A stretch of 64,000 nucleotides of DNA from Bacillales bacterium UBA7029. Lineage in GTDB: Bacteria > Bacillota_I > Bacilli_A > RFN20 > CAG-826. Position numbers and translations under genes: made by a program. Below, in pieces: positions 29,909 through 49,234 of the stretch. Location: positions 15,893 through 79,892 of the forward strand of contig DLBE01000043.1 in NCBI GenBank assembly GCA_002494205.1. Direction: 5' to 3'. How positions within the stretch are numbered: the first letter of the stretch is position 1; the number at the start of each line of letters is the position of its first letter. Below the pieces are notes generated by a model that saw only the letters and a list, made by a program, of their open reading frames with translations, did not search any database and was not told the DNA's origin.

Positions 29909-29936
29909 TTGTATAAAATGCGTAATGCGATATAAT
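29909..29936 (+). promoter_or_regulatory. promoter TTGTAT-16-TATAAT placed 6 nt before ATG 29943 (leaderless)
   Basis: -35 at 29909-29914; -10 at 29931-29936. Confidence 0.45.
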
Positions 29937-29942
29937 ACAAGC

Positions 29943-31670
29943 ATGTGTTTTGCTAAGGTCGCAACTATTGGATGGTTAGAAATTGTATTCCTGTCTGTCG
30001 CAGGACTAGCTTTTCTTGCATTTATAGCAGTTAGTATTTTGTTTGCTATTTCTAACCATAGAGATGACAATCACATTAGAGAAATTAAAGATCTCTCAAA
30101 TTCTTTGAGAGTGTTTGTTATTGATATTAAAAACGATACAGTTAAGTATTTTAATTCTGCTCATCTAAGAGATCGAAAAACCTCTTCAATCACTTCTTTT
30201 TACAATCAATACAAATCAAAAGAACGTGAAATGCTAATTAACTGGATTGGAAATCTTTTAGAAAACAATGAAGAGACTCCAAAATTTCTTGAAATCGGTG
30301 TTTACATTAGATCTTCTAAGAAAACAGTCACTTCAATTTTGGAAGTTCAGAAAATAGATTATCAAAAACAATTAATTTTTATTGAATCGCATTTACTTCC
30401 AACAACATTTAAAGGAAAACATAAAGGTGATAAACCTGAATTCGTCAAAAAAGATTACTTATTTAAGAAAATTTCTGCAAGTAACGGCAAAGGTGCAACT
30501 TTCGCATTTAACTTCTATAACAAAAGAACAAAAACAAGCGATATCTCTCAACTTGTTTATGCTGACTTAAGAGATATTATGGTTGGTTTCACATCTGAAA
30601 ACATTTATGTTTTAGAAGAAAAATTTGGCCAGATTTTAGTTACAAACTTCGATATTAAAGGTAAAACCGAAATTAATGCCTTTATAGATACATTGAAATC
30701 TAGAATCAATAGATTCTTATTAATTAAATCTCACTCAGATGAAATTGAGTACACAATTGGTGTTATTGAAAATAGTGAGAGCTTTAGAGATGGCAATACA
30801 TTAATCAAAAACGCTCTTATGGTTGCTGATTTAACTAAGGATAGTGAAAATCAAATCGCATACTTTGATGATATAAAAACAATGTTAATTGATGACCAAG
30901 GAAAACAATTTAGGACCGATGTTCAAGAAGTTATCGAGGATAATAAACTTCGTTACTATTTCCAACCTATTTATAATGTTGATCGTGGTAGAGTTGTTGC
31001 TTATCAATCTTCTGTAGTTCCTTATGATTCTTATTTCCACGAAATTGATACTTTAAAGAACTACGCAATGAGAACTGAAGATGACAAGATGCTTTTCTCA
31101 ACAATTACGAAAAATATAATTTCACGTTTCATTCAAGAAAAGAATGATGAGAACGTTCAATTATTCTTCCCAGTTTCATTTAACGAAATTAACTTTGTTA
31201 ATAGATCACTTGGACATACAAATGGTGTTAGCGATATTAATATCGTTTTGGTCTTAAAAGAAAGAGACTTATCAGCTCTTCCTGATGAGTATGAAGAAGA
31301 AACTCTTATTAATGCTATTCGTTCATTTAAATCTAAGGGTTATGCAGTTGCACTTGAAATTGATGACGATATTCTTACTCTATCTCCAACACTTTATGGT
31401 TCATTCGACTATTTCAATTTATCTGTTGCAACACATATTTCTAAAAAGAATGCCGGTAGAAATTTACCTTCATTCCAAGGACTTATTGAGAAGTTACTTC
31501 ACTATGAAAAACCAATTGTCGCATTAGACATTCAAAGCTGGGATATCGTTGAACTAGTCTATAGACTAGGTGTTCCAATTATATGTTCGGATGCAATCGC
31601 ACCTCCAGCGGAAAATATCATGCCAATTCAACGTAAAATCGTTACAAAAATTAGAAATCTTAAACAATGA
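29943..31670 (+). CDS. membrane-anchored protein with a degenerate (catalytically inactive) EAL-like domain
   Basis: N-terminal TM helix. The C-terminal ~250 aa follow EAL topology (LRYYFQPIYNVDRGRVVAYQSS; FFPVSFNEI; YAVALEIDDD; PIVALDIQSWD) but lack the EAL, DDFGTG and EGVE catalytic residues. Confidence 0.45.
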   Translation: MCFAKVATIGWLEIVFLSVAGLAFLAFIAVSILFAISNHRDDNHIREIKDLSNSLRVFVIDIKNDTVKYFNSAHLRDRKTSSITSFYNQYKSKEREMLINWIGNLLENNEETPKFLEIGVYIRSSKKTVTSILEVQKIDYQKQLIFIESHLLPTTFKGKHKGDKPEFVKKDYLFKKISASNGKGATFAFNFYNKRTKTSDISQLVYADLRDIMVGFTSENIYVLEEKFGQILVTNFDIKGKTEINAFIDTLKSRINRFLLIKSHSDEIEYTIGVIENSESFRDGNTLIKNALMVADLTKDSENQIAYFDDIKTMLIDDQGKQFRTDVQEVIEDNKLRYYFQPIYNVDRGRVVAYQSSVVPYDSYFHEIDTLKNYAMRTEDDKMLFSTITKNIISRFIQEKNDENVQLFFPVSFNEINFVNRSLGHTNGVSDINIVLVLKERDLSALPDEYEEETLINAIRSFKSKGYAVALEIDDDILTLSPTLYGSFDYFNLSVATHISKKNAGRNLPSFQGLIEKLLHYEKPIVALDIQSWDIVELVYRLGVPIICSDAIAPPAENIMPIQRKIVTKIRNLKQ

Positions 31671-37524: not shown

Positions 37525-38349
37525 TTATTCCAGGTTTACTTTGTTAGAAATATAGTAATGGTATTGCTTCTCTTGACAATATTTTTTAATGTCTTCTTTT
37601 AAATTAGAATCTTTTGTGTATTCTAAGAAGAATACTTCTTTATTTTTCTTTTTCATTAAAGATGCAATTTCTTTGTAAAAATTTTGATCTTCTTTATTTT
37701 GTTTAGCGAATATATCATGCTCATAATTTGTAATTAAAGAGAAGACTTCTTCTTGGTGATAACCCCAAACATAATTAAAAACGTTATCTTTATTATCGTT
37801 TGAGTCGTCAAAGTATTCAGCGCCGCCATTAACCATAACTTTTAATCCAAGTTTATTTACTCTATTCATTACACTTTTAAGGGAGTTGGCAAAATCTTGA
37901 TAATTTAATTCTTCCTCTTTTGCAATAGAGTAAACATCGACATTATCAAGGTAAACTCCAAAAGCGCCTTTGTTTTTATACTTTTTTGCAAGCGAAACAA
38001 CTAAATTTTGCCAAGACTTGTTAGTAACATCGATCCATCTTTCATCTGGCCAATTGTCATAATCTTTGAACGTCAAATCTTTGAATTCTTCATAATAATC
38101 ACGATAATTTTCCAATGAACCGACATTTAAATAAGCTAAGCAATTAGTGCCATTTTTTGTTAATTTTTCAATATTTGATTTAGAAAATTCATCAATCTCT
38201 AACGCTACATATTTGTAATTAATAAAACTTTTAATGTTATTATTAGCTCTTCCTAAAAATGCTCCATAATCATTTGAAGTAAAATTAGTCTTTGAATTAC
38301 AACTTACTAAAGTAAATGCAGCGATTAATGAGATAGCAATTTTTTTCAT
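37525..38349 (-). CDS. lipoprotein of the GH114 family (endo-alpha-1,4-polygalactosaminidase / TM1410-like TIM barrel)
   Basis: MKKIAISLIAAFTLVSC lipobox. LAYLNVGSLENYRDYY...NWPDERWIDVTNKSWQ...GAFGVYLDNVDVY matches the GH114 consensus. ATG 38349 is internal to the track ORF. Confidence 0.6.
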   Translation of the reverse strand: MKKIAISLIAAFTLVSCNSKTNFTSNDYGAFLGRANNNIKSFINYKYVALEIDEFSKSNIEKLTKNGTNCLAYLNVGSLENYRDYYEEFKDLTFKDYDNWPDERWIDVTNKSWQNLVVSLAKKYKNKGAFGVYLDNVDVYSIAKEEELNYQDFANSLKSVMNRVNKLGLKVMVNGGAEYFDDSNDNKDNVFNYVWGYHQEEVFSLITNYEHDIFAKQNKEDQNFYKEIASLMKKKNKEVFFLEYTKDSNLKEDIKKYCQEKQYHYYISNKVNLE

Positions 38350-38418
38350 AGTAATAAAATTGTATCGCAAATGAAAGTTGGGATGAATTTTTAAAAATAA
38401 AAGAGTAACCTATTTAGT

Positions 38419-39174
38419 ATGAAGATACTTTTAGTAGATGATGAACAACTTCAATTAATCAGATTAGAAAAAGCTTGTAGGGCTGTTATACCTAGTGCTG
38501 ATTATTTTATTTTTACAAATCCGGTTAAAGCACTTGAAGAAAGTGAAAAAACCAAATTTGATGTTGCGTTTTTGGATATTGAAATGCCATCAATCAAAGG
38601 GATTCAACTTGCTAAAAAATTAAAGAAAAATAATCCTCTTTTAAGTGTTATTTTTGTAACGGCCTATACCGACTATGCTTTACAAGCTTTTAATATTCAT
38701 GCTTCTGGTTACATTACTAAGCCTGTTAACGAAGCGAAAATTAAAGAAGAAATTGAAAATCTTAAAAACATTTCTCCTTTACCGACTACTAAAAAATTAC
38801 AAGTTAAATGCTTCGGCAATTTTGAAGTATTTTGCAAAGGAGAACCAGTTAAATTCTCTTATAAAAAGTCTAAAGAAGTTTTCGCCTATCTTATAGATAG
38901 AGAAGGCTCTGCAATTAATATTAATGAGCTTAATGCAGTTTTGTGGGAGGAAGATCACCCTTCATATTTAAGAAACTTAATTGCAGATATTCAAAAAACT
39001 TTAAAATCACTTGATTGTGAGGATGTTTTCGTTAAACGCCATAACGAATGCTATATTGATGTTGATAAAATCGATTGCGATGCTTACGAATATAAAAAAG
39101 ATAATCCAAACGCTGTAAGACTTTATCGAGGCGAATACATGATGCAATATTCATGGCCAATATTTGATGAATAA
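38419..39174 (+). CDS. orphan response regulator: REC domain plus SARP/OmpR-like winged-helix output domain
   Basis: LLVDDE, phospho-acceptor D in FLDIEMP, T in VIFVTAY, K in GYITKP. C-terminal QVKCFGNFEVFCKGEPVKF...EVFAYL...LNAVLWEE is a winged helix of SARP type. Confidence 0.75.
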   Translation: MKILLVDDEQLQLIRLEKACRAVIPSADYFIFTNPVKALEESEKTKFDVAFLDIEMPSIKGIQLAKKLKKNNPLLSVIFVTAYTDYALQAFNIHASGYITKPVNEAKIKEEIENLKNISPLPTTKKLQVKCFGNFEVFCKGEPVKFSYKKSKEVFAYLIDREGSAININELNAVLWEEDHPSYLRNLIADIQKTLKSLDCEDVFVKRHNECYIDVDKIDCDAYEYKKDNPNAVRLYRGEYMMQYSWPIFDE

Positions 39175-39197: not shown

Positions 39198-40397
39198 ATG
39201 TCTGAAATTGAAAGAACAAATAAGCTTATTTTGATGTTTAAGAATTATGAAGTTCTTTCTTTTTCATATGAATCAGAACCTAAACGAGTTGTTCATATAA
39301 TAGAAAAATTAGAGCATTTTGATAAAGCTCCCTATGGAGTTTTGCATCCACTTTATGACGAGGATACCGCACTTTTGAAATTTTTCAATTCGAGATCTAT
39401 CGCACCTCAAAGATATGATTACAATGAAATTCTTAAAGCTACTAATAGTAAGAATGGATTTGAACTATCTTTTAAAGGACACGGCTTATCTTTAACAAAC
39501 CATTATTGGTTTAAAAAAGAGGGTGAAAAATTAAAATACGAAGATATAAATTTCTTCACTAACAAGTGGGATGATTCCTTTGGAAGAGCGGTATTAAATA
39601 AAGATTATGAGAAACTAAAAAACTGTGATTTAAATGTTCCTGATATTGTTACTAATGGTTGGGCAGTTAAAGGATGGATTTGGGATAATGGTCCAAAGCT
39701 TTATAAATTCTCTAGAGATAAAATTAGCAGCGCAGAAGCTCTTGGTGAAGTTTTGGGTTCAAGACTTGCTAGAAGAATATTTCCAGATGATCAAGTTCTT
39801 CATTATGTACTTAAAAAAATTGGAAATAATTATGCTTCAGCAGCACCTGTACTTATTGGAATTGATGAAGAATTAGTTCCGCTTTCAAATTATTTTAAAT
39901 CTGATGTTTTTCACACTTATTTAAAAAGATTTAATAATAGAGAAGTCCAAAATGAATTTTTTAAATTAATAGAGCATTCTGGTATTCCAGGAATTAAAGA
40001 ATTTTTCATTAAAATTACATGTGTTAGACACTTATGTTTCATTTCCGATTTACATTTTGATAACATTTCTATTATTAAAAATAATAAAACAGGAAAACTA
40101 AGAATGTCTCCTTTATACGATTTAGCAGGAGCTTTCGGGACTTCTGAGTCAGGAAGAAAGTTTGTTTCTAACATTAATAAAGGAACATATCTAGTACTTT
40201 TCTATGTCTTTAATGAGCTAAATCCTGATTGGGATTATTCTTGGTATGACCCAAAACGACTTGACGGTTTCGAGAATGAAATAATCGAAATATTAACAAA
40301 ATCAGAATTTTATACACCCGAATTATTAGATAGAATAATAAATGTTTTCCGCTACCAAAAGGAAGCGTTAGATAAAATAGCAAAAAAGATTAAATAA
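39198..40397 (+). CDS. HipA-like Ser/Thr kinase family protein
   Basis: 399 aa; catalytic region ISDLHFDNISIIKNNKTGKLRMSPLYDLAGAFG matches the HipA_C DxHxxNxS...PxYD motif. 23-nt gap to the response-regulator gene. Confidence 0.55.
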   Translation: MSEIERTNKLILMFKNYEVLSFSYESEPKRVVHIIEKLEHFDKAPYGVLHPLYDEDTALLKFFNSRSIAPQRYDYNEILKATNSKNGFELSFKGHGLSLTNHYWFKKEGEKLKYEDINFFTNKWDDSFGRAVLNKDYEKLKNCDLNVPDIVTNGWAVKGWIWDNGPKLYKFSRDKISSAEALGEVLGSRLARRIFPDDQVLHYVLKKIGNNYASAAPVLIGIDEELVPLSNYFKSDVFHTYLKRFNNREVQNEFFKLIEHSGIPGIKEFFIKITCVRHLCFISDLHFDNISIIKNNKTGKLRMSPLYDLAGAFGTSESGRKFVSNINKGTYLVLFYVFNELNPDWDYSWYDPKRLDGFENEIIEILTKSEFYTPELLDRIINVFRYQKEALDKIAKKIK

Positions 40398-40454: not shown

Positions 40455-40658
40455 ATGAGGAAAGAATTGTTAAAAGGTTTAACTGAGGAACAAATAATTA
40501 AAGTGCAACAATGTAGCGATGTTCGTGATTTAATGCAACTTGCTAAAGATGAAGGTGTTGAATTAAATGATGAGCAACTAAAAGCTGTATCAGGTGGCGC
40601 TTGTTCTAGTGAAACAGATAAAGAAGATTCAGCGCATAATAGAAAAATTGAAAGTTAA
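40455..40658 (+). CDS. RiPP precursor peptide, Nif11-like leader with GG cleavage motif
   Basis: MRKELLKGLTEEQIIKVQQCSDVRDLMQLAKDEGVELNDEQLKAVSGG | ACSSETDKEDSAHNRKIES. The leader resembles Nif11 leaders (SEEQLKAF...IAKEAGF.IT.EEL...VAGG). 19-aa acidic core with one Cys. ATG 40455 is internal to the track ORF, which starts at TTG 40443. Confidence 0.75.
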   Translation: MRKELLKGLTEEQIIKVQQCSDVRDLMQLAKDEGVELNDEQLKAVSGGACSSETDKEDSAHNRKIES

Positions 40659-40660
40659 TA

Positions 40661-42055
40661 ATGTTTTTCCGTTTAAAAGATAATGTTGCATTAAGAAAAT
40701 GGAGATATGTTGATCGTGCGATTTATAAAAAAGGCATAGATCAAGCTCTTGGGGTTTCAAAGGAAGAATTTGAAATCCTTTTGCTATGCGATGGAGAACA
40801 CGATTTAGAAAATAACAAAATAATTCAAGAATTAAAAAATAGAAACCTCATTGAAGAATGTAACAAAGGCGATAAATTAAATGAATGGTCCAAGTTAAAG
40901 GAGTATGATAACTACTATTTTCCACGTATGAATCTAATGATTACTGGAAAATGTAATCTTAATTGTTTGCATTGCTTTAATGCAAAAGATAACGCTCCAT
41001 TAAATTCCGAACTCTCTTTTGAAGAAATTTTAACTATCTTAGATCAAGCAAAAGATATTGGCATTCATTGTTTTACATTAACTGGTGGTGAGCCATTAGT
41101 TCATCGTAAATTTTTAGATATTGTAAAAGCTATTTATGAAAGAAATATGTTCATTTTTGAGCTTAACACTAATGGCTTACTAATTAACCAAAAGATGCTC
41201 GATTTCTTTAAAGAAATAGGTTGCTATCCTTTAATAAAAATTTCTTATGATGGAATTGGTTATCATAACTGGATTAGACAACATCCTAAAGCTGAAGAAC
41301 TTACTTTAAAAGCTATTGAATTATGCATCAAAAATGGCTTCAGAGTGAAAGCCCAAGTTCAAGTTAATCGTAAGAATTTGGATTCGATGTTTGAAACCGC
41401 AAAACTACTTGATAAGATGGGCGTTGATGAGATGAGAATTATAAGAACAACTGAAGCTCCTCGATGGGAAAAGAACGCACCTCAATCATCTTTAACAATT
41501 GAAGAATATTACGAAAATATGCTGGATTTTGCGGCAAAATTCATGAAATCTGGGATGAAAATGACTGTTGATGTTTGGCAGTTTTTACGAATTTATCCAA
41601 GGCACAAACTTTACTCACTTGTACCTATTTCTTGTAATAAAGATGAATTTAATATTCGTATTCCAATGTGTAAAGGTAACCGCGGAATGATTGCTGTTTC
41701 TTCAAAAGGAGAAGTTGTTCCATGCTTACAAATGTCTGGTTACTTTTTGGAAAAAGGTATCAGCTTAGGAAATTTGTTTAAAACGCCTTTAAAAGAATTA
41801 GTGAAAAATAGTCCCTATCTAGATTTAGCAATGGCGCCATTATTTAAACAAATTATTGAGAATGATAAATGTGGTAATTGTAAATACTACAAAGCCTGTA
41901 CCGGTGGTTGCCCTGCTTTGGGCTTATTATATTCTAAAGATATTAATTTCTACCATGAAGATATTACTAAATGCATTTTCTTTGAAAATGGTTGGTATGA
42001 AAAAGTTACAGAAACTTTAAAAGATTTTCATTTACAAAATCCTTTAAATATTTAG
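40661..42055 (+). CDS. radical SAM/SPASM peptide maturase with N-terminal RRE (PqqD-like) domain
   Basis: CNLNCLHC (CxxxCxxC); N-terminal ~90-aa PqqD-like RRE; C-terminal SPASM with CNKDEFNIRIPMCKGNRGM...VVPC...CGNCKYYKACTGGCPA. 3-nt gap to the precursor gene. Confidence 0.85.
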   Translation: MFFRLKDNVALRKWRYVDRAIYKKGIDQALGVSKEEFEILLLCDGEHDLENNKIIQELKNRNLIEECNKGDKLNEWSKLKEYDNYYFPRMNLMITGKCNLNCLHCFNAKDNAPLNSELSFEEILTILDQAKDIGIHCFTLTGGEPLVHRKFLDIVKAIYERNMFIFELNTNGLLINQKMLDFFKEIGCYPLIKISYDGIGYHNWIRQHPKAEELTLKAIELCIKNGFRVKAQVQVNRKNLDSMFETAKLLDKMGVDEMRIIRTTEAPRWEKNAPQSSLTIEEYYENMLDFAAKFMKSGMKMTVDVWQFLRIYPRHKLYSLVPISCNKDEFNIRIPMCKGNRGMIAVSSKGEVVPCLQMSGYFLEKGISLGNLFKTPLKELVKNSPYLDLAMAPLFKQIIENDKCGNCKYYKACTGGCPALGLLYSKDINFYHEDITKCIFFENGWYEKVTETLKDFHLQNPLNI

Positions 42056-42150: not shown

Positions 42151-42531
42151 ATGAAAAAGAATAAAGTTAGTATCTCTAATCCAGAAGAACTAGAAAAAAA
42201 TCTGCAATATTCTTCTCCAGTTACATGGATTGCTTTAGGAGTTGTCTTTTCTCTTATTGTGGGCCTTTTTGTATGGTCTTGCGTTTTCAAAATTAAAGAC
42301 AAAATTATAGGCAAAGCGAAAATTGTCAGTTCTGAAGTTACTCTTGTGGTTGACGCTAATTCTATTTCAAAATTAAAGGTTGGCCAAAAAGTTTATATTA
42401 ATAATTTAGAAGGCGAAATCTTAAAAATTGTTGAGAAAAAGCCTATTATTTCTCATTTTGCATTGGCTGATGGAGAGTACGAATACACCATTATTAATGA
42501 AATTAAACCAATAGAATACTTGATCAAATAA
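42151..42531 (+). CDS. small membrane-anchored protein, possible minimal HlyD/MFP-like export accessory
   Basis: 126 aa; one N-terminal TM; beta-rich C-terminus KAKIVSSEVTLVVDANSISKLKVGQKVYINNLEGEILKIV resembles an MFP barrel-sandwich hairpin. Confidence 0.35.
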   Translation: MKKNKVSISNPEELEKNLQYSSPVTWIALGVVFSLIVGLFVWSCVFKIKDKIIGKAKIVSSEVTLVVDANSISKLKVGQKVYINNLEGEILKIVEKKPIISHFALADGEYEYTIINEIKPIEYLIK

Positions 42532-42533
42532 TT

Positions 42534-44708
42534 ATGGAAAAGGTAAAGAAACCAAAGACTAAAGGCAAAGGAGTTGCAAATACTCCGTTAATCATGCAAT
42601 TAGAAGCTCTAGAATGTGGAGCTGCTTCTTTAACAATGGTTATGGCTTACTATGGAAAGTGGGTACCTCTTGAACAAGTTAGAGTTGATTGTGGTGTTTC
42701 TAGAAACGGAAGTAACGCTAAGAACATTCTTAGAGCTGCTCAAAAATATGGGTTTAAAACATCAGGTTATGCTTACAATATTCAAAAATTAAAAGAAAGA
42801 GGCAAATTTCCAGCGATCATTCACTGGGGTGGAGGCCACTTTGTTGTTTTAAATGGTTTTAGGGGTAATAAAGCAATTATTAATGACCCAGCTAAAGGAC
42901 TTGTTAAAGTCGATTTGAAGACTTTTGACAAAATATTTACCGGAATTTATCTTGAACTTGTTCCAGATGAAAATTTTGTTCCTAGCGGAAAAAGAAAATC
43001 AATTTTTTCATTTGCTAAGAAACGTCTTAAAGGCGCTTTGCCATTAATTATTTTCTTTTCAATTACGACAATTATTTTCTATGTTTTTAGCATTATTTCG
43101 CCTGCTATGAGCCAAGTTTTTGTCGATAAACTTTTAGGTGGGCAAAACCCGTCATGGCTGTTGCCATTTATTCTAGTATTTGCAAGTGTAGCATTGCTAC
43201 AAGTCGTCGTAACAGTAATTCAGAGCATATCGCAATATAAGATTCGAGGCAAACTAGATTTAATTGGTTCAACAACTTATATGTGGAGAATTTTAAGACT
43301 CCCTATTGAATTCTTCTCGCAAAGAATGGTTGGAGATTTGCAAGGACGTCAATCTGAAAACGCATCAATTGCAGAAACATTGGTTAATGTTTTCGCTCCT
43401 TTATTATTTAACACAATTATGATTGTGGTTTATCTGTTTGTAATGATTAATAAGAGCTGGATTTTATCTCTTGTGGGAGTAATAACAGTCCTTATAAATA
43501 TCTTTGTGTCGACAAGAATTTCTAAAGTCAGGGTCAATATTTCCCGTGTTCAAGCTAGAGATAACGCAAGACTTTCTGGCATGACTTCAAAAGGCATTGA
43601 AATGGTCGAAACAATTAAATCAAATGGTGCTGAGCAAGCTTATTTTGAATCTTGGTCCGATGTTCAAAACGATGTTGTTAAAGGAAAGCTTAGAATGTCG
43701 AAAATAAATGCATCACTAGGTTTAATTCCTTCATTTGCAGCAATGCTTGCAAATTACTCAATATTAATTCTTGGTGTTTTCTTCACTATTAAGGGTGAAT
43801 TCACAATTGGTTCAATTTTAGCTTTCCAAGGTTTACTTGGTTCATTTATGCAACCTGTTAATACTCTTATTTCAAGTGGTCAGACATTACAAGAAATGAG
43901 AACCATGATGGAAAGAGTGGATGATGTTTTGGAATATCCTTTAGATGAAAATGTTATTCGTGAAATTAAGACTGACAATGTTTCAAAAATTAAAGGTAAC
44001 CTCATTTTGAAAGATATAACTTTTGGTTATTCTAGACTAGACGAACCAATTTTAAAGAATTTTAATCTGGAAATAAAACAAGGACAAAAGGTTGCAATTG
44101 TTGGTTCAACAGGAAGCGGAAAATCAACGCTATCAAAATTAATTTCAGGTTTATATTCACCTTGGTCAGGAGAAATTATTTTTAATGGCAAGAAGATTAC
44201 TGAAATTGATCACGAAATTTTTACTTCATCAATTGCAGTTGTTGATCAAGATATAACAATGTATGAAGACACAATTTTAAATAATATTAAAATGTGGGAT
44301 GAATCTATTGAAGATTACGAAGTAATAATGGCATGTAATGATGCTCAAATACATAAACAAATCATGGCAAGAGAAGGTGGTTATAATGCTCCAGTTTTGG
44401 AAGGTGGTAAAAACTTCTCTGGTGGTGAGAAACAAAGACTTGAGATTGCTCGTTCTTTAGCTTCTGATCCAAGCATCATCATTTTAGATGAAGCTACAAG
44501 TGCGTTAGACGCCAAAACAGAATCTGAAGTTGTTAAAGCAATTAAAGCTCGTGGCATCACAACAATTGTTATTGCTCATAGATTATCTACCATTAGGGAT
44601 GCTGATTTGATTGTTGTTCTTAATAAAGGCGTAATTGTGGAGCAAGGAACTCACGAAGAATTAATGAAAAATAAAAGTTCATATTACGAACTTGTTACAA
44701 ATGATTAG
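42534..44708 (+). CDS. peptidase-containing ABC transporter (C39 peptidase plus 6 TM plus NBD)
   Basis: C39 Cys in QLEALECGAASL and His in GGGHFVVL; Walker A GSTGSGKST; LSGGEKQR; ILDEATSALD. Confidence 0.9.
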   Translation: MEKVKKPKTKGKGVANTPLIMQLEALECGAASLTMVMAYYGKWVPLEQVRVDCGVSRNGSNAKNILRAAQKYGFKTSGYAYNIQKLKERGKFPAIIHWGGGHFVVLNGFRGNKAIINDPAKGLVKVDLKTFDKIFTGIYLELVPDENFVPSGKRKSIFSFAKKRLKGALPLIIFFSITTIIFYVFSIISPAMSQVFVDKLLGGQNPSWLLPFILVFASVALLQVVVTVIQSISQYKIRGKLDLIGSTTYMWRILRLPIEFFSQRMVGDLQGRQSENASIAETLVNVFAPLLFNTIMIVVYLFVMINKSWILSLVGVITVLINIFVSTRISKVRVNISRVQARDNARLSGMTSKGIEMVETIKSNGAEQAYFESWSDVQNDVVKGKLRMSKINASLGLIPSFAAMLANYSILILGVFFTIKGEFTIGSILAFQGLLGSFMQPVNTLISSGQTLQEMRTMMERVDDVLEYPLDENVIREIKTDNVSKIKGNLILKDITFGYSRLDEPILKNFNLEIKQGQKVAIVGSTGSGKSTLSKLISGLYSPWSGEIIFNGKKITEIDHEIFTSSIAVVDQDITMYEDTILNNIKMWDESIEDYEVIMACNDAQIHKQIMAREGGYNAPVLEGGKNFSGGEKQRLEIARSLASDPSIIILDEATSALDAKTESEVVKAIKARGITTIVIAHRLSTIRDADLIVVLNKGVIVEQGTHEELMKNKSSYYELVTND

Positions 44709-44720
44709 AAAGGAGTAAAC

Positions 44721-46901
44721 ATGGGTTGGTTTGAAGAGCAAGTAAAACAAAGAAAAGAACTCGATGCAAAAACATTCGAAGAATCTTTCATGTCGCTTGC
44801 TGGATTAAAAGTCGATAATAAAGAAAGTTTGACTGACGAACAAATAAAAGATAACTTTGTTATTAGTCAAATACTTTCATATTTCAACCATCAACCTATT
44901 GATATTCCAAAGTCTATTGATAATTTTGAAGATAAATTAAATTATGTTATTTCACAAACGGATTTCGTTTATAGAAAGATCAATTTAGATAAATCTTATT
45001 CCGACAATAACAAGTTTCCAATCCTTATTTTTGTCCCATTTAATAACTCTCCAGTTTTACTTTTCCCTAAAGGAAAGGATAAATACTATTATATAAATTA
45101 CGCGACAGGAAAAAGAGCTACTATTGATTCTTATTTAGTGAACGGACTAGAACTTGAAGCATATACTTTCTATCGTCCACTTCCAAAATCAAAAATTTCA
45201 TTTAAAGGCTACGCTTCTTACTTAAAGAAATCGGTTAAACCATTGGATTTAATTTTGCTTATTTTGTTCACAATTGCCGCCTCTGGTGTCGGACTTTTAA
45301 TCCCTTTTCTCACTAAGAGATTGACAGGTGAAGTTGTTAGCAAAGGTGAAATCCCATTCTTTATTTTAATTTCAAGTTTTGTTGTAACCGCTGCAACAGG
45401 TTTACTTTTAGTAAAAGCGGTTCAGTCTTTTATCAATATTAAAGTTTCAACTAAGATTGAGAAGTCTATTCAAGAAGCCACAATGATGAGAGTTTTATCT
45501 CTCCCAGCTTCTTTCTTTAAGAAACATAATACCGGTGAACTTGGCTTAAGATTTAGCAATGTAGTCTTTTTAGCAAGATTAATCATTGCTGGAATGTTTA
45601 CAACGCTAACTTCGGTTATCATGTCTTTTGCTTATGTATTCCAATTAATTGGTTTTGCCCCATCCTTAATTTGGCCTGTTGTACTAATTTTATTAGTGAA
45701 CACAAGTTTTACAATTTTAATTTCTTTTATTCAGAAAGAATATGCTAAAAAACAACTTGAACTAAGCGCTAAAGAAGCTGGTGTTACTTATGAAATGATT
45801 AATGGCATCCAAAAGATTAGACTTTCCGGAAGCGAAAAACGTATTTTTGCAAAATGGGCTAGTGCTTATTCTAAGAGTGCAAAACTTAAATATAATCCTC
45901 CTATGATTTTAAAACTTAGTGGAGCATTGTCCTTATTAATTTCATTATTAGGTACTCTACTTATTTATTTTGTGGCCGCCAAAAACAACATTGATGCAAG
46001 TAGTTACATGGCATTTATGTCTAGCTATGGTGTTTTATCTGCTGCTTTTGCATCTTTATCTCAAGTTGCTAGTACATTATTTACTATTCAACCAATTTAT
46101 GAAATGGCTCGCCCAATTTTGGAAAGCGAACCTGAATCTAATGAAGGAAAAATTGAACTTAAACACATTACTGGAAATATCACAATTAAAGATGTCTCCT
46201 TTAGATACACTGAAACTGGTCCACTTATCTTAAATAAGTTTAATTTAGACATTAAAGAAGGCGAATATCTTGCAATAGTTGGTCAAACAGGTTGTGGTAA
46301 ATCTACATTGGTGAGACTTTTACTTGGTTTTGAAAAACCTATAAATGGTGAAGTATTATATGATAATATAAACATTAATGATGTTAATTTAACTTCATTA
46401 AGAAAGAATATTGGTACTGTTATGCAAAATGGAACTTTATTCCATGCTGATATTCTATCTAACATCATTATTTCTAACCCGAGTCTAAAAAACGAAGATG
46501 CTTGGGAAGCAGCGGAGATTGCTAATATTGCCGAAGATATTAGAGAAATGCCAATGGGAATGAGAACTGTTATATCGGAAGGTCAAGGTGGTATCTCTGG
46601 TGGTCAAAAACAAAGGATTATGATTGCTAGAGCAATCGTCCATAAACCTAAAATTCTCATCTTTGATGAGGCAACATCCGCTTTAGATAATAAAACCCAA
46701 AAATCTATTTCAGATTCAATCAGTAAACTCAATTGTACACGTATTGTAATCGCGCATAGACTATCGACAATTAAAAATGCTGATCGAATTATTATGCTTG
46801 AGGGTGGCAAAATTATAGAGCAAGGAGATTATAAAACTTTGATTGCTAAAAATGGCAAGTTTGCTGAACTTGTTGAAAGACAAAGACTTGATACTAATTA
46901 G
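44721..46901 (+). CDS. partner ABC transporter with a degenerate, Cys-less C39-like N-terminal domain
   Basis: 726 aa; the N-terminal ~150 aa lack a catalytic Cys; 6 TM; Walker A GQTGCGKST; ISGGQKQR; IFDEATSALD. SD AAAGGAG. Confidence 0.85.
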   Translation: MGWFEEQVKQRKELDAKTFEESFMSLAGLKVDNKESLTDEQIKDNFVISQILSYFNHQPIDIPKSIDNFEDKLNYVISQTDFVYRKINLDKSYSDNNKFPILIFVPFNNSPVLLFPKGKDKYYYINYATGKRATIDSYLVNGLELEAYTFYRPLPKSKISFKGYASYLKKSVKPLDLILLILFTIAASGVGLLIPFLTKRLTGEVVSKGEIPFFILISSFVVTAATGLLLVKAVQSFINIKVSTKIEKSIQEATMMRVLSLPASFFKKHNTGELGLRFSNVVFLARLIIAGMFTTLTSVIMSFAYVFQLIGFAPSLIWPVVLILLVNTSFTILISFIQKEYAKKQLELSAKEAGVTYEMINGIQKIRLSGSEKRIFAKWASAYSKSAKLKYNPPMILKLSGALSLLISLLGTLLIYFVAAKNNIDASSYMAFMSSYGVLSAAFASLSQVASTLFTIQPIYEMARPILESEPESNEGKIELKHITGNITIKDVSFRYTETGPLILNKFNLDIKEGEYLAIVGQTGCGKSTLVRLLLGFEKPINGEVLYDNININDVNLTSLRKNIGTVMQNGTLFHADILSNIIISNPSLKNEDAWEAAEIANIAEDIREMPMGMRTVISEGQGGISGGQKQRIMIARAIVHKPKILIFDEATSALDNKTQKSISDSISKLNCTRIVIAHRLSTIKNADRIIMLEGGKIIEQGDYKTLIAKNGKFAELVERQRLDTN

Positions 46902-46915
46902 TGGAGGCTAATAAT

Positions 46916-47203
46916 ATGAAACATAGTTTAGAAAAAGATGTACTTACACTCTTCTTAGAAGGAGAACTTAATTCTTTTAATTCTGAAGATGTTGAGAAAG
47001 AAATTGAAGAAATACTTAAAACAAATTCCTTTAAATCAATTGTTTTAGATTTAAAAGATTTGACTTATATTTCATCTGCTGGTCTTAGAATAATTATTAG
47101 ACTTAAACAACAATGTGATAATACTTCAATTATTCACACTCCAAAGGATGTTTTAAATATTTTTAAAATGGTAGGATTTACTAGTATTTTAAAAATTGAT
47201 TAA
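46916..47203 (+). CDS. STAS-domain protein (anti-sigma-factor antagonist, SpoIIAA/RsbV-like)
   Basis: LDLKDLTYISSAGLRIIIRL contains the conserved phosphorylatable Ser region. SD GTGGAGG 8 nt upstream of ATG 46916. Confidence 0.75.
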   Translation: MKHSLEKDVLTLFLEGELNSFNSEDVEKEIEEILKTNSFKSIVLDLKDLTYISSAGLRIIIRLKQQCDNTSIIHTPKDVLNIFKMVGFTSILKID

Positions 47204-47205
47204 TT

Positions 47206-49056
47206 ATGGCTTTAAAAGAAAGACAATTTGTTGACGCTTATCATGATAATGAAGCAGATGCCAATAGGCATATGTCTTTTGTTAATGCAGCTGCTGGTAT
47301 TTTGGCTTTAATTATTTGGGCTTTGTATTTAGCAAGAGTATTTACAATTCCTGATCATTTTTTCCCAGTTGTCATGATTTTATTCCCTACAGCAGCAGTA
47401 TTGTTATTTGTGCCACTTTTTCTTGTGAAAACTGATCTTGTAAGAAGACCTGCTTATAAATACTTTATAATATTTTCACTTTTGGCTGTTGTTATTGCAT
47501 TAAATATATCAATTCCAAAACATTCTCTTTTATTTTGGCCCTTTATTATTTTAATCGCGAATCACTATTACAATCCTACGCTAGGGCGTGTAGTTTATGT
47601 TGTGACTATTGTTGCAATGCTTATTTGCATGTATTTAGGCATGTTTTTTGGTGAATTTGATGAAAACTTATTTGGTGGTGGTGTCATTTTAAAAGATGGT
47701 ACAATCGGAACAGTTGAAACATTTACTGAACGAAAAGAGCTTCTAGATCAACTTGCTAAAAACGGAAATAACCGTTACATTAAAGCTCTTATTTTCTATT
47801 ATTTCCCTAGAGCGATGATTGTTACATTGTTCTTTATGGTAAGTAATCTTTTAAACAAAAGAACATATAAACTGCTTGATGCTGAAATTAGAGCTCACGA
47901 CGAACAAGAAAAAGCAAAAACAGAGCTAGAAGTTGCTAAAGGCATCCAACTAAATACACTTCCAGGTGAATTTGCGTCTAATGACGGTGTAGAAATCTTA
48001 GGTGAACTAAGAGCCGCAAAAGAAGTTGGTGGAGATCTTTATGATTATGTTGATATTGATAAAGACCACGTCGCTATTTTAATTGGAGATGTTTCTGGTA
48101 AAGGCGTTCCTGCTGCTATGTTTATGATGAAGACAATCACTTCATTTAGAGACTTTGCAACTAAAGGAAAAAGCCCATCTGAAATTCTTAAAGCAGTTAA
48201 TAAATCAATTTTTAAAGGAAATACTGACTTCATGTTTGTAACTTGTTTCCTTGCTATTTTAGACAAAATAACAGGCAAACTTGTTTATGCAAATGCAGGT
48301 CATAATCCACCTATTATTGGTTCAAATAAAAATTATAAATTTTTAAATAGTAAACCTGGTTTAATTTTAGGCTGTTTTGAGAATTCAAATGTTGTTGATG
48401 AAGAAATTATTTTAAAACCAGGTGAGACTATTACTTTATATACTGACGGAATTACTGAAGCAAAAAACGGAGAAGGAAAACTATTTGGTGAAAGTAGATT
48501 CCTTAATGTTTTTAATAAGAAAAACTACACTTGCACAATTGAGCTCCATAGTCAGATTAAAGATGAAATTGCAGAATTTGTTAAAGATGCACCTCAAAGT
48601 GACGATATAACAATTTTAACATTAAGATATAAAGGTGATAATTTACAATACGATCAAAAACATTTTGAAGCCAAAAAAGAAAATACCGTCGATATTCTTG
48701 GCTTCATTAAAGATTTCTCTGCAAGACATAATTTTTCAGGCGAATTTACAAATAAACTTTTGATAGTAGGTGACGAACTTGCCTCAAATATTATCAACCA
48801 TGGTTATAAAAATAACGGTGGACCTATCTTTATTCGTTTACTTTTTAATGAAGATAAAAAAGAATTTGTATTAACAATTATCGATAGTGCTGTTGAATTT
48901 AATCAACTAGAGGTTGAGGACACCCCAATTTCTGGAGAAGCTAAAAAACAAAAAATTGGCGGACTTGGTTTACTAATTGTTAAAAACATTATGGATGAAT
49001 ATTCTTATCAAAGAGTGAACAATAAGAACATCTTGGTATTAAAGAAAAACCTTTAA
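47206..49056 (+). CDS. membrane sensor fused to a PP2C (SpoIIE/RsbU-type) phosphatase and a GHKL anti-sigma-factor-type Ser kinase
   Basis: 616 aa; ~5 N-terminal TM; PP2C motifs GDVSGKGVPAAMFMM ... TDGITEA ... DDITIL; C-terminal HATPase_c of RsbW type ELASNIINHGY ... GGLGLLIVKNIMDE. Confidence 0.75.
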   Translation: MALKERQFVDAYHDNEADANRHMSFVNAAAGILALIIWALYLARVFTIPDHFFPVVMILFPTAAVLLFVPLFLVKTDLVRRPAYKYFIIFSLLAVVIALNISIPKHSLLFWPFIILIANHYYNPTLGRVVYVVTIVAMLICMYLGMFFGEFDENLFGGGVILKDGTIGTVETFTERKELLDQLAKNGNNRYIKALIFYYFPRAMIVTLFFMVSNLLNKRTYKLLDAEIRAHDEQEKAKTELEVAKGIQLNTLPGEFASNDGVEILGELRAAKEVGGDLYDYVDIDKDHVAILIGDVSGKGVPAAMFMMKTITSFRDFATKGKSPSEILKAVNKSIFKGNTDFMFVTCFLAILDKITGKLVYANAGHNPPIIGSNKNYKFLNSKPGLILGCFENSNVVDEEIILKPGETITLYTDGITEAKNGEGKLFGESRFLNVFNKKNYTCTIELHSQIKDEIAEFVKDAPQSDDITILTLRYKGDNLQYDQKHFEAKKENTVDILGFIKDFSARHNFSGEFTNKLLIVGDELASNIINHGYKNNGGPIFIRLLFNEDKKEFVLTIIDSAVEFNQLEVEDTPISGEAKKQKIGGLGLLIVKNIMDEYSYQRVNNKNILVLKKNL

Positions 49057-49114
49057 TGAATAGACACAAAAATAAGAAATTTAAGGGAATTCCTGGGGAT
49101 TTTGCAAAAAAAGA

Positions 49115-49140
49115 AAAGCACAAATAAGTGCTTTTTTCTT
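49115..49140. terminator. bidirectional terminator between the kinase/phosphatase gene and tRNA-Ser
   Basis: aaagcac-aaataa-gtgcttt hairpin with T-runs on both strands. Confidence 0.7.
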
Positions 49141-49143
49141 TCC

Positions 49144-49234
49144 TGGCGGAGTAGGCGAGGTTCGAACTCGCGCACCAGTTACCCGGTCTAACGGTTTAGC
49201 AAACCGTCCCCTTGAGCCTCTTGGGTACTACTCC
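49144..49234 (-). tRNA. tRNA-Ser (anticodon GCU)
   Basis: Reverse complement is GGAGTAGTACCCAAGAGGCTCAAGGGGACGGTTTGCTAAACCGTTAGACCGGGTAACTGGTGCGCGAGTTCGAACCTCGCCTACTCCGCCA. Confidence 0.85.

Follow-up and report, generated by a model that had tools for sequence, protein, structure and literature searches.

Partner switches, in which a PP2C phosphatase and an RsbW-type GHKL serine kinase act on a phospho-serine of a STAS protein, have long been regarded as devices for the control of sigma factors. In the RsbU/RsbV/RsbW and SpoIIE/SpoIIAA/SpoIIAB systems of Bacillus subtilis, kinase and phosphatase are separate proteins, SpoIIE being membrane-anchored, and the operon also encodes the sigma factor. 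In HsbR of Pseudomonas aeruginosa and CrsR of Shewanella oneidensis, the PP2C domain is followed by the RsbW-type domain in one chain, the STAS partners HsbA and CrsA are separate proteins, a soluble receiver (REC) domain fed by a phosphorelay provides the input, and the sigma factor is encoded outside the module. HsbA has non-sigma targets as well (FlgM and HsbD), and together with SypA and All4160 it exemplifies the non-sigma outputs that are now emerging. Here, a STAS gene and the adjacent gene for a membrane-anchored PP2C-GHKL protein are analysed, both located in a 64-kb stretch of Bacillales bacterium UBA7029 (contig DLBE01000043.1), hereafter referred to as the window. The pair comprises the three domain families of the Bacillus systems including the predicted phospho-serine, and shares with HsbR-HsbA and CrsR-CrsA the fused chain and the separate STAS partner. 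In contrast to the Bacillus systems, kinase and phosphatase are fused and no sigma factor lies nearby; in contrast to HsbR and CrsR, the input domain is a six-helix membrane domain and the genes are linked to a peptide exporter.

Judged from gene order, the pair is co-operonic with an ABC1(C39)/ABC2 exporter of double-glycine peptides in many species from two phyla. It is proposed that the two proteins form a phosphorylation switch of this export or signalling cassette, which acts on a target other than a sigma factor, and a probability of roughly 0.45 is assigned to this reading. Circumstantial evidence points to the exporter as the most likely target of the STAS protein. The first-pass annotation of the window had suggested that the pair couples peptide export or sensing to a downstream target, and a role of this kind remains the best reading.

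The STAS and PP2C-GHKL gene pair

Domains were assigned with Pfam and NCBIfam profiles on the proteins of the window, the scores for the pair being well outside what chance would give, and residue numbers count from the start of each open reading frame. The pair and its signals are arranged as follows:

46903..46907, plus strand: Shine-Dalgarno sequence GGAGG, directly after the ABC2 stop and 8 nt before the STAS ATG
46916..47203, plus strand: STAS protein of the anti-sigma-antagonist type, 95 aa (Pfam STAS, E=1.7e-13; TIGR00377, 55.7 bits)
47075..47077, plus strand: codon of Ser54, the predicted phospho-acceptor, aligned to SpoIIAA Ser58
47206..49056, plus strand: membrane PP2C-GHKL protein, 616 aa (open reading frame listing and Pfam)
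47206..47955, plus strand: six-transmembrane sensor domain with long connecting helix, residues 1–250 (AlphaFold model)
48061..48630, plus strand: PP2C domain of the SpoIIE/RsbU type, residues 286–475 (Pfam, E=5.5e-52, 176.9 bits)
48664..49047, plus strand: GHKL serine-kinase domain of the RsbW/SpoIIAB type, residues 487–614 (HATPase_c_2, E=2.3e-19)

The ABC2 stop codon TAG occupies positions 46899–46901, an in-frame GTG at 46901 lies 5' of the STAS ATG at 46916, and the STAS stop is followed after 2 nt by the ATG of the PP2C-GHKL gene. The first-pass annotation had placed a STAS antagonist and a PP2C-GHKL protein at these positions, co-directional with the abutting ABC genes and preceded by the sequence GTGGAGG (46901–46907). 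Open reading frames, profile scores and the sequence itself agree with this description, except that the STAS protein has 95 instead of 96 amino acids and that the membrane domain, predicted to contain about five transmembrane helices, has six in the AlphaFold model.

The STAS protein exceeds the cut-off for TIGR00377, a model for anti-sigma-factor antagonists (55.7 versus 53.45 bits), and its best matches in the PDB are SpoIIAA and TM1442. Ser54 aligns with the phosphorylated Ser58 of SpoIIAA, the position at which the S58A crystal form 1tid_B carries alanine. Across the STAS orthologues, the ISSAGLR motif does not vary, and it was found in 99 of the 104 STAS reading frames that adjoin PP2C-GHKL genes in all fetched loci. 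With 65–66% identity to the stand-alone protein STAS1 of related loci, compared to 44–48% identity to the STAS domain of a STAS-APH fusion, the STAS protein of the window represents the orthologue of the former. In a mirror-tree analysis, STAS distances correlated best with those of the GHKL (r=0.71) and PP2C (r=0.60) domains, as expected for a cognate pair.

The STAS-APH fusion is a protein of 384 aa, composed of a STAS domain and an APH/choline-kinase-like phosphotransferase, and is encoded between STAS and PP2C-GHKL in many relatives (L001 8844-9998, L003 8844-9998, L004 8845-9999, L037 8845-9996, L038 8847-9998). It is the only STAS partner in the deeper branches and is absent from the window. 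No description of such a fusion was found.

The N-terminal region of the PP2C-GHKL protein (residues 1–250) was modeled with a mean predicted local distance difference test score (pLDDT) of 87.6 and a predicted TM-score (pTM) of 0.79. It displays six transmembrane helices, a loop of about 40 residues on the outside (residues 149–189) and a long helix that connects to the phosphatase; a REC input domain is absent from the N-terminus, and the six-transmembrane domain is found there instead. Neither a Pfam match nor a fold match in the PDB was obtained for this domain (best E=0.6). Mean identity amounts to 0.76 for the six-transmembrane domain, 0.72 for PP2C and 0.60 for GHKL, so that the sensor is as conserved as the catalytic domains. 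Invariant motifs of the six-transmembrane domain are NHYYNP (residues 119–124), FGEFDxNLF (147–155), NRY (189–191) and YYxPRA (198–203).

When 62 proteins from Bacillota and Coriobacteriia are aligned, the metal-binding aspartates of PP2C (Asp277, Asp295, Asp414 and Asp466/Asp467) are invariant, as are the catalytic Glu524, Asn528 of the N-box, Asp560 of the G1 box and the G2 motif GGLG (residues 585–588) of the GHKL domain. The G1 box reads D-x-A instead of D-x-G. The GHKL domain aligns to RsbW and SpoIIAB, scores 70.1 bits against the HATPase_c_2 cut-off of 27.4, and superimposes on SpoIIAB with a TM-score of 0.76–0.81. The closest solved structure to the full-length model (pLDDT 82.3) is the RsbU-RsbW fusion Rv1364c (PDB-ID: 3ke6; E=1.8e-17 over 367 aligned columns), followed by RssB, SiaA, SpoIIE, RsbX and SpoIIAB; the RssB-type NCBIfam model gave 56.1 bits against a cut-off of 700. 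By their sequence motifs, kinase, phosphatase and the STAS phospho-site are all intact, and the membrane protein can probably both phosphorylate and dephosphorylate the STAS protein. The earlier assignment of a SpoIIE/RsbU-type PP2C and an RsbW-type GHKL domain to one membrane protein is thereby supported by Pfam, by the motifs and by the fold, and with phospho-serine, phosphatase and kinase all present the designation as a module of the partner-switching type is retained.

The fusion of phosphatase and kinase, to which the first-pass annotation had drawn attention, is ordinary and already known when taken alone. Homology searches yielded 7,943 scored proteins, the best 120 of which are 594–636 aa long and contain the same two domains. 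Among 1.84 billion cluster representatives searched exhaustively, 9,215 matched at E<=1e-30. Of the best 150, about half align over their full length including the six-transmembrane domain, down to 28% identity, and the rest share only residues ~210–616 and have other N-terminal domains in front. With 9,215 representatives and the known proteins HsbR, CrsR and Rv1364c, the fusion has common precedent. An assembly chimera, which had been considered as a possible origin of the fusion, is ruled out by thousands of full-length homologues and by the independent assembly of the gene order ABC2, STAS, PP2C-GHKL, YhhN from other samples.

Paralogues of about 480 aa that consist of the six-transmembrane domain and PP2C and are devoid of GHKL were also observed (L026 10001-11440; P0201 and P0202). 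In L026, the gene for such a paralogue lies 8 kb upstream of a cassette in which exporter, STAS and PP2C-GHKL are all present.

Linkage to a double-glycine peptide exporter

Upstream of the STAS gene, the window encodes a peptide and its putative export machinery:

40455..40658, plus strand: precursor peptide with a 48-aa Nif11-like leader ending in GG, followed by the 19-aa core ACSSETDKEDSAHNRKIES
42151..42531, plus strand: small membrane protein, 126 aa, resembling the N-terminus of NHLP HlyD (TIGR03794 positions 2–64 only, 26.2 bits)
42534..44708, plus strand: ABC1, double-glycine peptide exporter composed of C39 peptidase, permease and ATPase (Peptidase_C39, E=5.1e-32)
44721..46901, plus strand: ABC2, permease/ATPase partner with a 165-aa N-terminal domain (TIGR03797, 647.2 bits)

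ABC1 reaches 839.7 bits with TIGR03796 (cut-off 853.3) and ABC2 stays below the TIGR03797 cut-off of 709.4; by these profile scores, both are close relatives of the NHLP/Nif11 exporters, just under the equivalog cut-offs. The small HlyD-like protein, whose match is confined to the N-terminal 64 profile positions of TIGR03794 (cut-off 156.2 bits), precedes ABC1 in all cassettes including those of Coriobacteriia. Residues 1–165 of ABC2 (window 44721-45215) gave no Pfam match. This domain is conserved as far as Coriobacteriia, where it likewise starts with MGWF(E/D)xQ, and is a candidate regulatory or docking domain.

An alignment of precursors from 12 loci revealed a near-invariant leader and short, hydrophilic cores with a single cysteine. 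Across the cassettes, the cores comprise 9–23 residues, are hydrophilic and vary between species, and thus look like signals rather than toxins.

Longer precursors with the same Nif11-like leader are encoded in L014 (1799-2116), L016 (103-390 and 3670-3957), L018 (1792-2079) and L020 (78-347, 490-783 and 1056-1340). Their cores of about 45 residues are rich in cysteine and resemble zinc ribbons (CPxC...CxxC), and they may constitute a second substrate class of the same exporter.

Related loci were collected from species-level metagenome-assembled genomes of rumen and gut 'Erysipelotrichaceae/Bacilli', from metagenome contigs and by further look-ups, annotated with hidden Markov models built from the cassette, and examined with 10-kb flanks. 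ABC1 and ABC2 are located directly 5' of STAS in 19 loci of the six-transmembrane family. Measured in 21 loci (the 19 distinct ones and two re-assemblies of the window), the gap between the ABC2 stop and the STAS ATG ranges from -4 to +17 nt, indicating co-translation. The linked loci include a sister clade of only ~50% identity (second copy of L026, and L036), and the connection between exporter and STAS is kept even though downstream synteny is lost. A neighbour-joining tree places the exporter-linked state at the base of the window clade together with this sister clade. Forms lacking the exporter branch off inside exporter-linked clades, and L006, which is one of these forms, keeps the cassette regulator; both features indicate loss.

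The first-pass annotation had attached the pair to an exporter operon for a peptide that is made by the ribosome and then modified post-translationally (RiPP). This holds for the exporter and the double-glycine peptide, which accompany the pair in the 19 loci and in Coriobacteriia, whereas the radical SAM maturase is missing from several relatives. Since the link to the exporter is intact in L014, L036 and L119, which all lack the radical SAM gene, it belongs to exporter and peptide and not to the maturase.

The same association recurs in two loci with a GC content of 64–68% (compared to 33%), L051 and L119, whose relatives are named Coriobacteriia, Senegalimassilia and Bifidobacterium. Here the gene order is membrane PP2C-GHKL, double-glycine peptide, STAS, HlyD-like protein, ABC1(C39) and ABC2. 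The leader ends in ELEQVVGG in L051, followed by the core IRIPRPKTY, and in LGQVVGG in L119, followed by IGIKGYLPNLRNS. ABC1 and ABC2 of the window are orthologous to those of L119, with 47% identity over 718 aa and 38% identity over the full length, respectively. The PP2C-GHKL proteins can be aligned only over residues 241–615 (32%), which implies that the sensor domain has been exchanged in Coriobacteriia. In a further locus, L052, ABC2, STAS and PP2C-GHKL are combined with a third, non-six-transmembrane N-terminal region, which appears Cache-like by eye and has no Pfam match. The sensor changes with the class of peptide: six-transmembrane domains accompany cysteine-containing peptides with a Nif11-like leader, a different multi-transmembrane domain accompanies unmodified peptides of 9–13 aa, and the third region is found in L052.

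Genes for a radical SAM protein, a histidine kinase, a response regulator or any other transcription factor are absent from the L119 cassette. By gene content, the cassette can thus be reduced to peptide, exporter, STAS and PP2C-GHKL as its minimal conserved set, and as no transcription factor is encoded in the L119 cassette, the exporter is the one candidate target within it. In conclusion, comparison of the loci indicates that attachment to the exporter is conserved across two phyla and not accidental. In an initial interpretation, the peptide and exporter genes had been regarded as a strain-specific insertion beside a core operon of STAS, STAS-APH and PP2C-GHKL; the genome and metagenome survey and the Coriobacteriia cassettes ruled this out.

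Stand-alone ABC ATPases of about 362 aa, consisting of ABC_tran and an unassigned C-terminal part, were observed inside or near four distant PP2C/GHKL/STAS modules (L078 7857-8942, L101 3995-5107, L046 12677-13765, L079 12617-13708). In L101, the ATPase gene lies between separate PP2C and GHKL genes.

Accompanying genes of the cassette

The remaining features of the cassette and its 3' boundary are:

38419..39174, plus strand: response regulator with REC domain and OmpR/SARP-like winged helix (Pfam Response_reg, E=4.1e-22)
39198..40397, plus strand: HipA_C-like protein, 399 aa, conserved cassette member (weak match to Pfam HipA_C, E=1.5e-3)
40661..42055, plus strand: radical SAM/SPASM maturase (Pfam Radical_SAM, E=3.8e-21; SPASM, E=4.7e-8)
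49114..49135, both directions: two-way intrinsic terminator hairpin (terminator scan and sequence)
49144-49234, minus strand: tRNA-Ser(GCT), convergent on the operon and sharing the hairpin 49114-49135

Residues 43–196 of the response regulator align to the OmpR-family regulators DrrB and DrrD. Full-size cassettes begin with a LytS-type histidine kinase beside this regulator (L015 80-1174, L024 54-767, L036 1880-3145, L051 1721-2815). In the window, the kinase is missing and a GH114-family gene on the minus strand takes its place (37525-38419), which leaves the response regulator orphaned. Compared to its relatives, the window thus represents a trimmed cassette by gene content, in which the LytS-type kinase and STAS-APH are lost and the remaining genes are intact.

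The HipA_C-like protein is kept in the window clade between regulator and precursor. Its homologue in L036 (14878-16191) matches HipA_C above the Pfam cut-off (E=2.4e-7), and a sequence search of the PDB gave no match for the window protein, which could be a Ser/Thr kinase of the cassette. A terminator had already been placed after the operon by the first-pass annotation; the hairpin, flanked by T-runs on both sides, serves both the operon and tRNA-Ser(GCT). Elsewhere in the window (29925-31670), a 581-aa protein has no precomputed Pfam hit and a weak EAL match over residues 332–478 (E=2e-4).

Proposed mechanism and alternative explanations

In the proposed switch, the six-helix membrane domain would sense a cue and shift the balance between kinase and phosphatase, which would in turn set the phosphorylation state of Ser54. 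This state would decide on the partner of the STAS protein, and one form, by analogy the unphosphorylated one, would bind a target other than a local sigma factor. The STAS protein might dock on a nucleotide-binding domain of the exporter or on the N-terminal domain of ABC2, whereby peptide secretion would be switched post-translationally, as MlaB controls the MlaF ATPase. Candidate cues are the exported peptide, which would create a feedback loop, and the state of the membrane or envelope. In the full-size relatives, transcription is presumably handled by the separate LytS-type kinase and the response regulator.

A more specific version of this model, in which PP2C-GHKL is the receptor of the exported peptide and STAS gates the C39 exporter by phospho-dependent docking on a nucleotide-binding domain, bypassing two-component systems and transcription, is doubtful. 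If true, STAS-ABC control by phosphorylation, as proposed for MlaB, would have its first natural example here, and Bacillota and Coriobacteriia would share a new class of quorum-sensing wiring.

Several observations weigh against the exporter as target. The closest syntenic relative, L001, shares the flanks of the window (Hexapep upstream; YhhN, Ham1 and Na_Ca_ex downstream) and encodes STAS, STAS-APH and PP2C-GHKL, but no exporter. Eleven loci, mostly with STAS-APH, have no exporter within 10 kb, the deeper branches L037 and L038 contain STAS-APH and PP2C-GHKL only, and among ~78 distant PP2C-GHKL loci from a metagenome scan an exporter is present in just two. Since the module persists without exporter, other outputs are possible. 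Moreover, the STAS protein is not a member of the MlaB family model NF033618 mlaB_1 (18.9 bits, cut-off 90), and the mirror-tree correlation between STAS and ABC2 is weak (partial r 0.22–0.32, 12 loci). Sensing of the peptide, in particular, is disfavoured by the outside loop, which hardly varies in the window clade whereas the peptide cores differ by ~69%, and by loop and core divergence, whose correlation (r=0.40) shows no loop-specific signal when compared to other regions (0.39 and 0.36). On these alignments, the covariation test itself is neutral, neither supporting nor excluding peptide sensing.

Among the alternatives, a CrsR/HsbR-like anti-sigma factor anchored in the membrane holds up best, unlikely as it is. 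Here, GHKL would hold a remote sigma factor, and the dephosphorylated STAS protein would bind GHKL and free the sigma factor to transcribe the peptide cassette or a stress regulon. The GHKL domain resembles RsbW and SpoIIAB in sequence and fold, CrsR and HsbR, fused REC-PP2C-GHKL proteins, bind RpoS, and the exporter-less modules would suit a genome-wide output. However, no sigma-70 domain is annotated or detectable among the proteins of the whole 64-kb window, in line with the first-pass annotation, nor within ~20 kb around any related cassette. This absence of a nearby sigma factor excludes no remote one, because RpoS is likewise encoded outside the CrsR and HsbR modules. Close relatives are found on contigs of ~1 Mb, and few sigma factors would be expected of such small genomes. 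Above all, an anti-sigma function leaves the tight coupling to the exporter across phyla unexplained.

Next in rank, and improbable, is a pheromone receptor, whose membrane domain would bind the mature peptide while STAS would relay the signal to transcription, for example to the orphan response regulator, and not to the exporter. Quorum sensing would then use a partner switch where a two-component system is otherwise employed. The short, hydrophilic and species-variable cores are signal-like, the sensor domain is swapped when the class of peptide changes, and in L119, without histidine kinase and response regulator, PP2C-GHKL is the sole sensor of the cassette; the window, too, lacks the histidine kinase and yet retains the regulator. 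Against this, the near-invariant loop faces variable cores without loop-specific covariation, and the full-size cassettes hold a LytS-type kinase and response regulator as a possible receptor system. Furthermore, a precedent for a STAS protein acting on a response regulator was not found, and in L119 there is no transcription factor on which STAS could act.

It is distinctly improbable that the adjacency is merely historical, i.e. that the pair serves housekeeping or stress responses in general, with STAS-APH or something remote as its true output, and that the exporter was inserted alongside in an ancestor. L001 with its identical flanks, the eleven exporter-less loci and the deeper branches with STAS-APH would all fit such a switch. 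Many distant modules likewise have APH-like kinases. Across the broader PP2C-GHKL family (30–44% identity, other sensors), most loci have a STAS gene directly beside PP2C-GHKL, and eight have an APH-like kinase there. Mere adjacency, however, does not account for the recurrence of the linkage in a second phylum, with another gene order and another sensor, and in L052, nor for intergenic gaps that indicate co-translation or for a link that survives the loss of downstream synteny. Moreover, the nesting of exporter-less forms within linked clades and the regulator retained in L006 indicate loss of the exporter.

A self-immunity device protecting the producer from its own peptide, as also raised by the first-pass annotation, is very improbable, as only the position at the operon end, where bacteriocin operons often carry immunity genes, speaks for it, whereas the peptides are unlike membrane-active bacteriocins, the two proteins belong to signalling enzymes or adaptors and have their catalytic sites intact, and the module occurs without any peptide genes.

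Comparison with known systems

Control of the exporter by a phospho-regulated STAS protein has partial counterparts in several described systems. Rv1364c of Mycobacterium tuberculosis, the best structural match of the window protein, is a solved phosphatase-kinase fusion; it is cytoplasmic, receives its input through a PAS domain, contains the STAS domain in the same chain and has no exporter context. SypE of Vibrio fischeri acts as dual serine kinase and phosphatase on the STAS protein SypA, the unphosphorylated form of which acts on a non-sigma target inside a secretion or biosynthesis locus. SypE is a soluble protein with the domain order kinase-REC-phosphatase, and the syp locus makes a polysaccharide. 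The All4160-HenR system of Anabaena likewise resembles a partner switch whose output is an enzyme and not a sigma factor. In this system, STAS is fused to the regulated enzyme, as in the STAS-APH proteins of the relatives; the enzyme in question is a glycosyltransferase, kinases and phosphatase are encoded separately, and the window contains no STAS-enzyme fusion.

With the Com/Blp cassettes and NHLP/Nif11 export, the window shares the double-glycine leader, the C39 ABC exporter and the accessory membrane protein, and its relatives in addition possess the histidine kinase and response regulator. The Com/Blp regulator is of the LytTR type, whereas the regulator of the window is OmpR/SARP-like and no cognate histidine kinase is encoded in the window. 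To our knowledge, a STAS/PP2C-GHKL pair has not been described for any Com/Blp or NHLP/Nif11 system. A search of the literature, which did not cover all journals, found no description of a STAS protein or anti-sigma antagonist combined with a radical SAM protein, precursor peptide, ABC exporter or double-glycine exporter. The components and the fusion are of known kinds, but the searchable literature yielded no account of a complete partner switch joined in a conserved manner to a double-glycine peptide exporter.

A complete switch, comprising sensor, kinase, phosphatase and STAS protein, is thus built into a peptide-export cassette of gut and rumen bacteria from two phyla. Being short and variable between species, the peptides could be signals of the rumen and gut microbiota that have so far escaped description. 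Names from Senegalimassilia and Bifidobacterium are attached to homologues of the Coriobacteriia-type PP2C-GHKL protein; judging from these names, tractable hosts may exist.

The closest parallel for the proposed output is MlaB of the Escherichia coli MlaFEDB complex, a small STAS protein which binds and controls the ABC ATPase MlaF. Thr52 of MlaB, the equivalent of the SpoIIAA phospho-acceptor, is located at the MlaF interface, and a phosphomimetic substitution weakens binding; regulation by phosphorylation was proposed and left open by the authors. The pair described here would supply, beside an ABC transporter, the kinase and phosphatase that are missing from the Mla system. The transporter of the window differs from it in being a peptide exporter with fused nucleotide-binding domains, and the contact between STAS and exporter is a prediction. 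If STAS acts on the exporter, post-translational control of peptide secretion becomes testable, and so does the control of STAS-ABC regulators by phosphorylation, a question raised by the structure of MlaFB.

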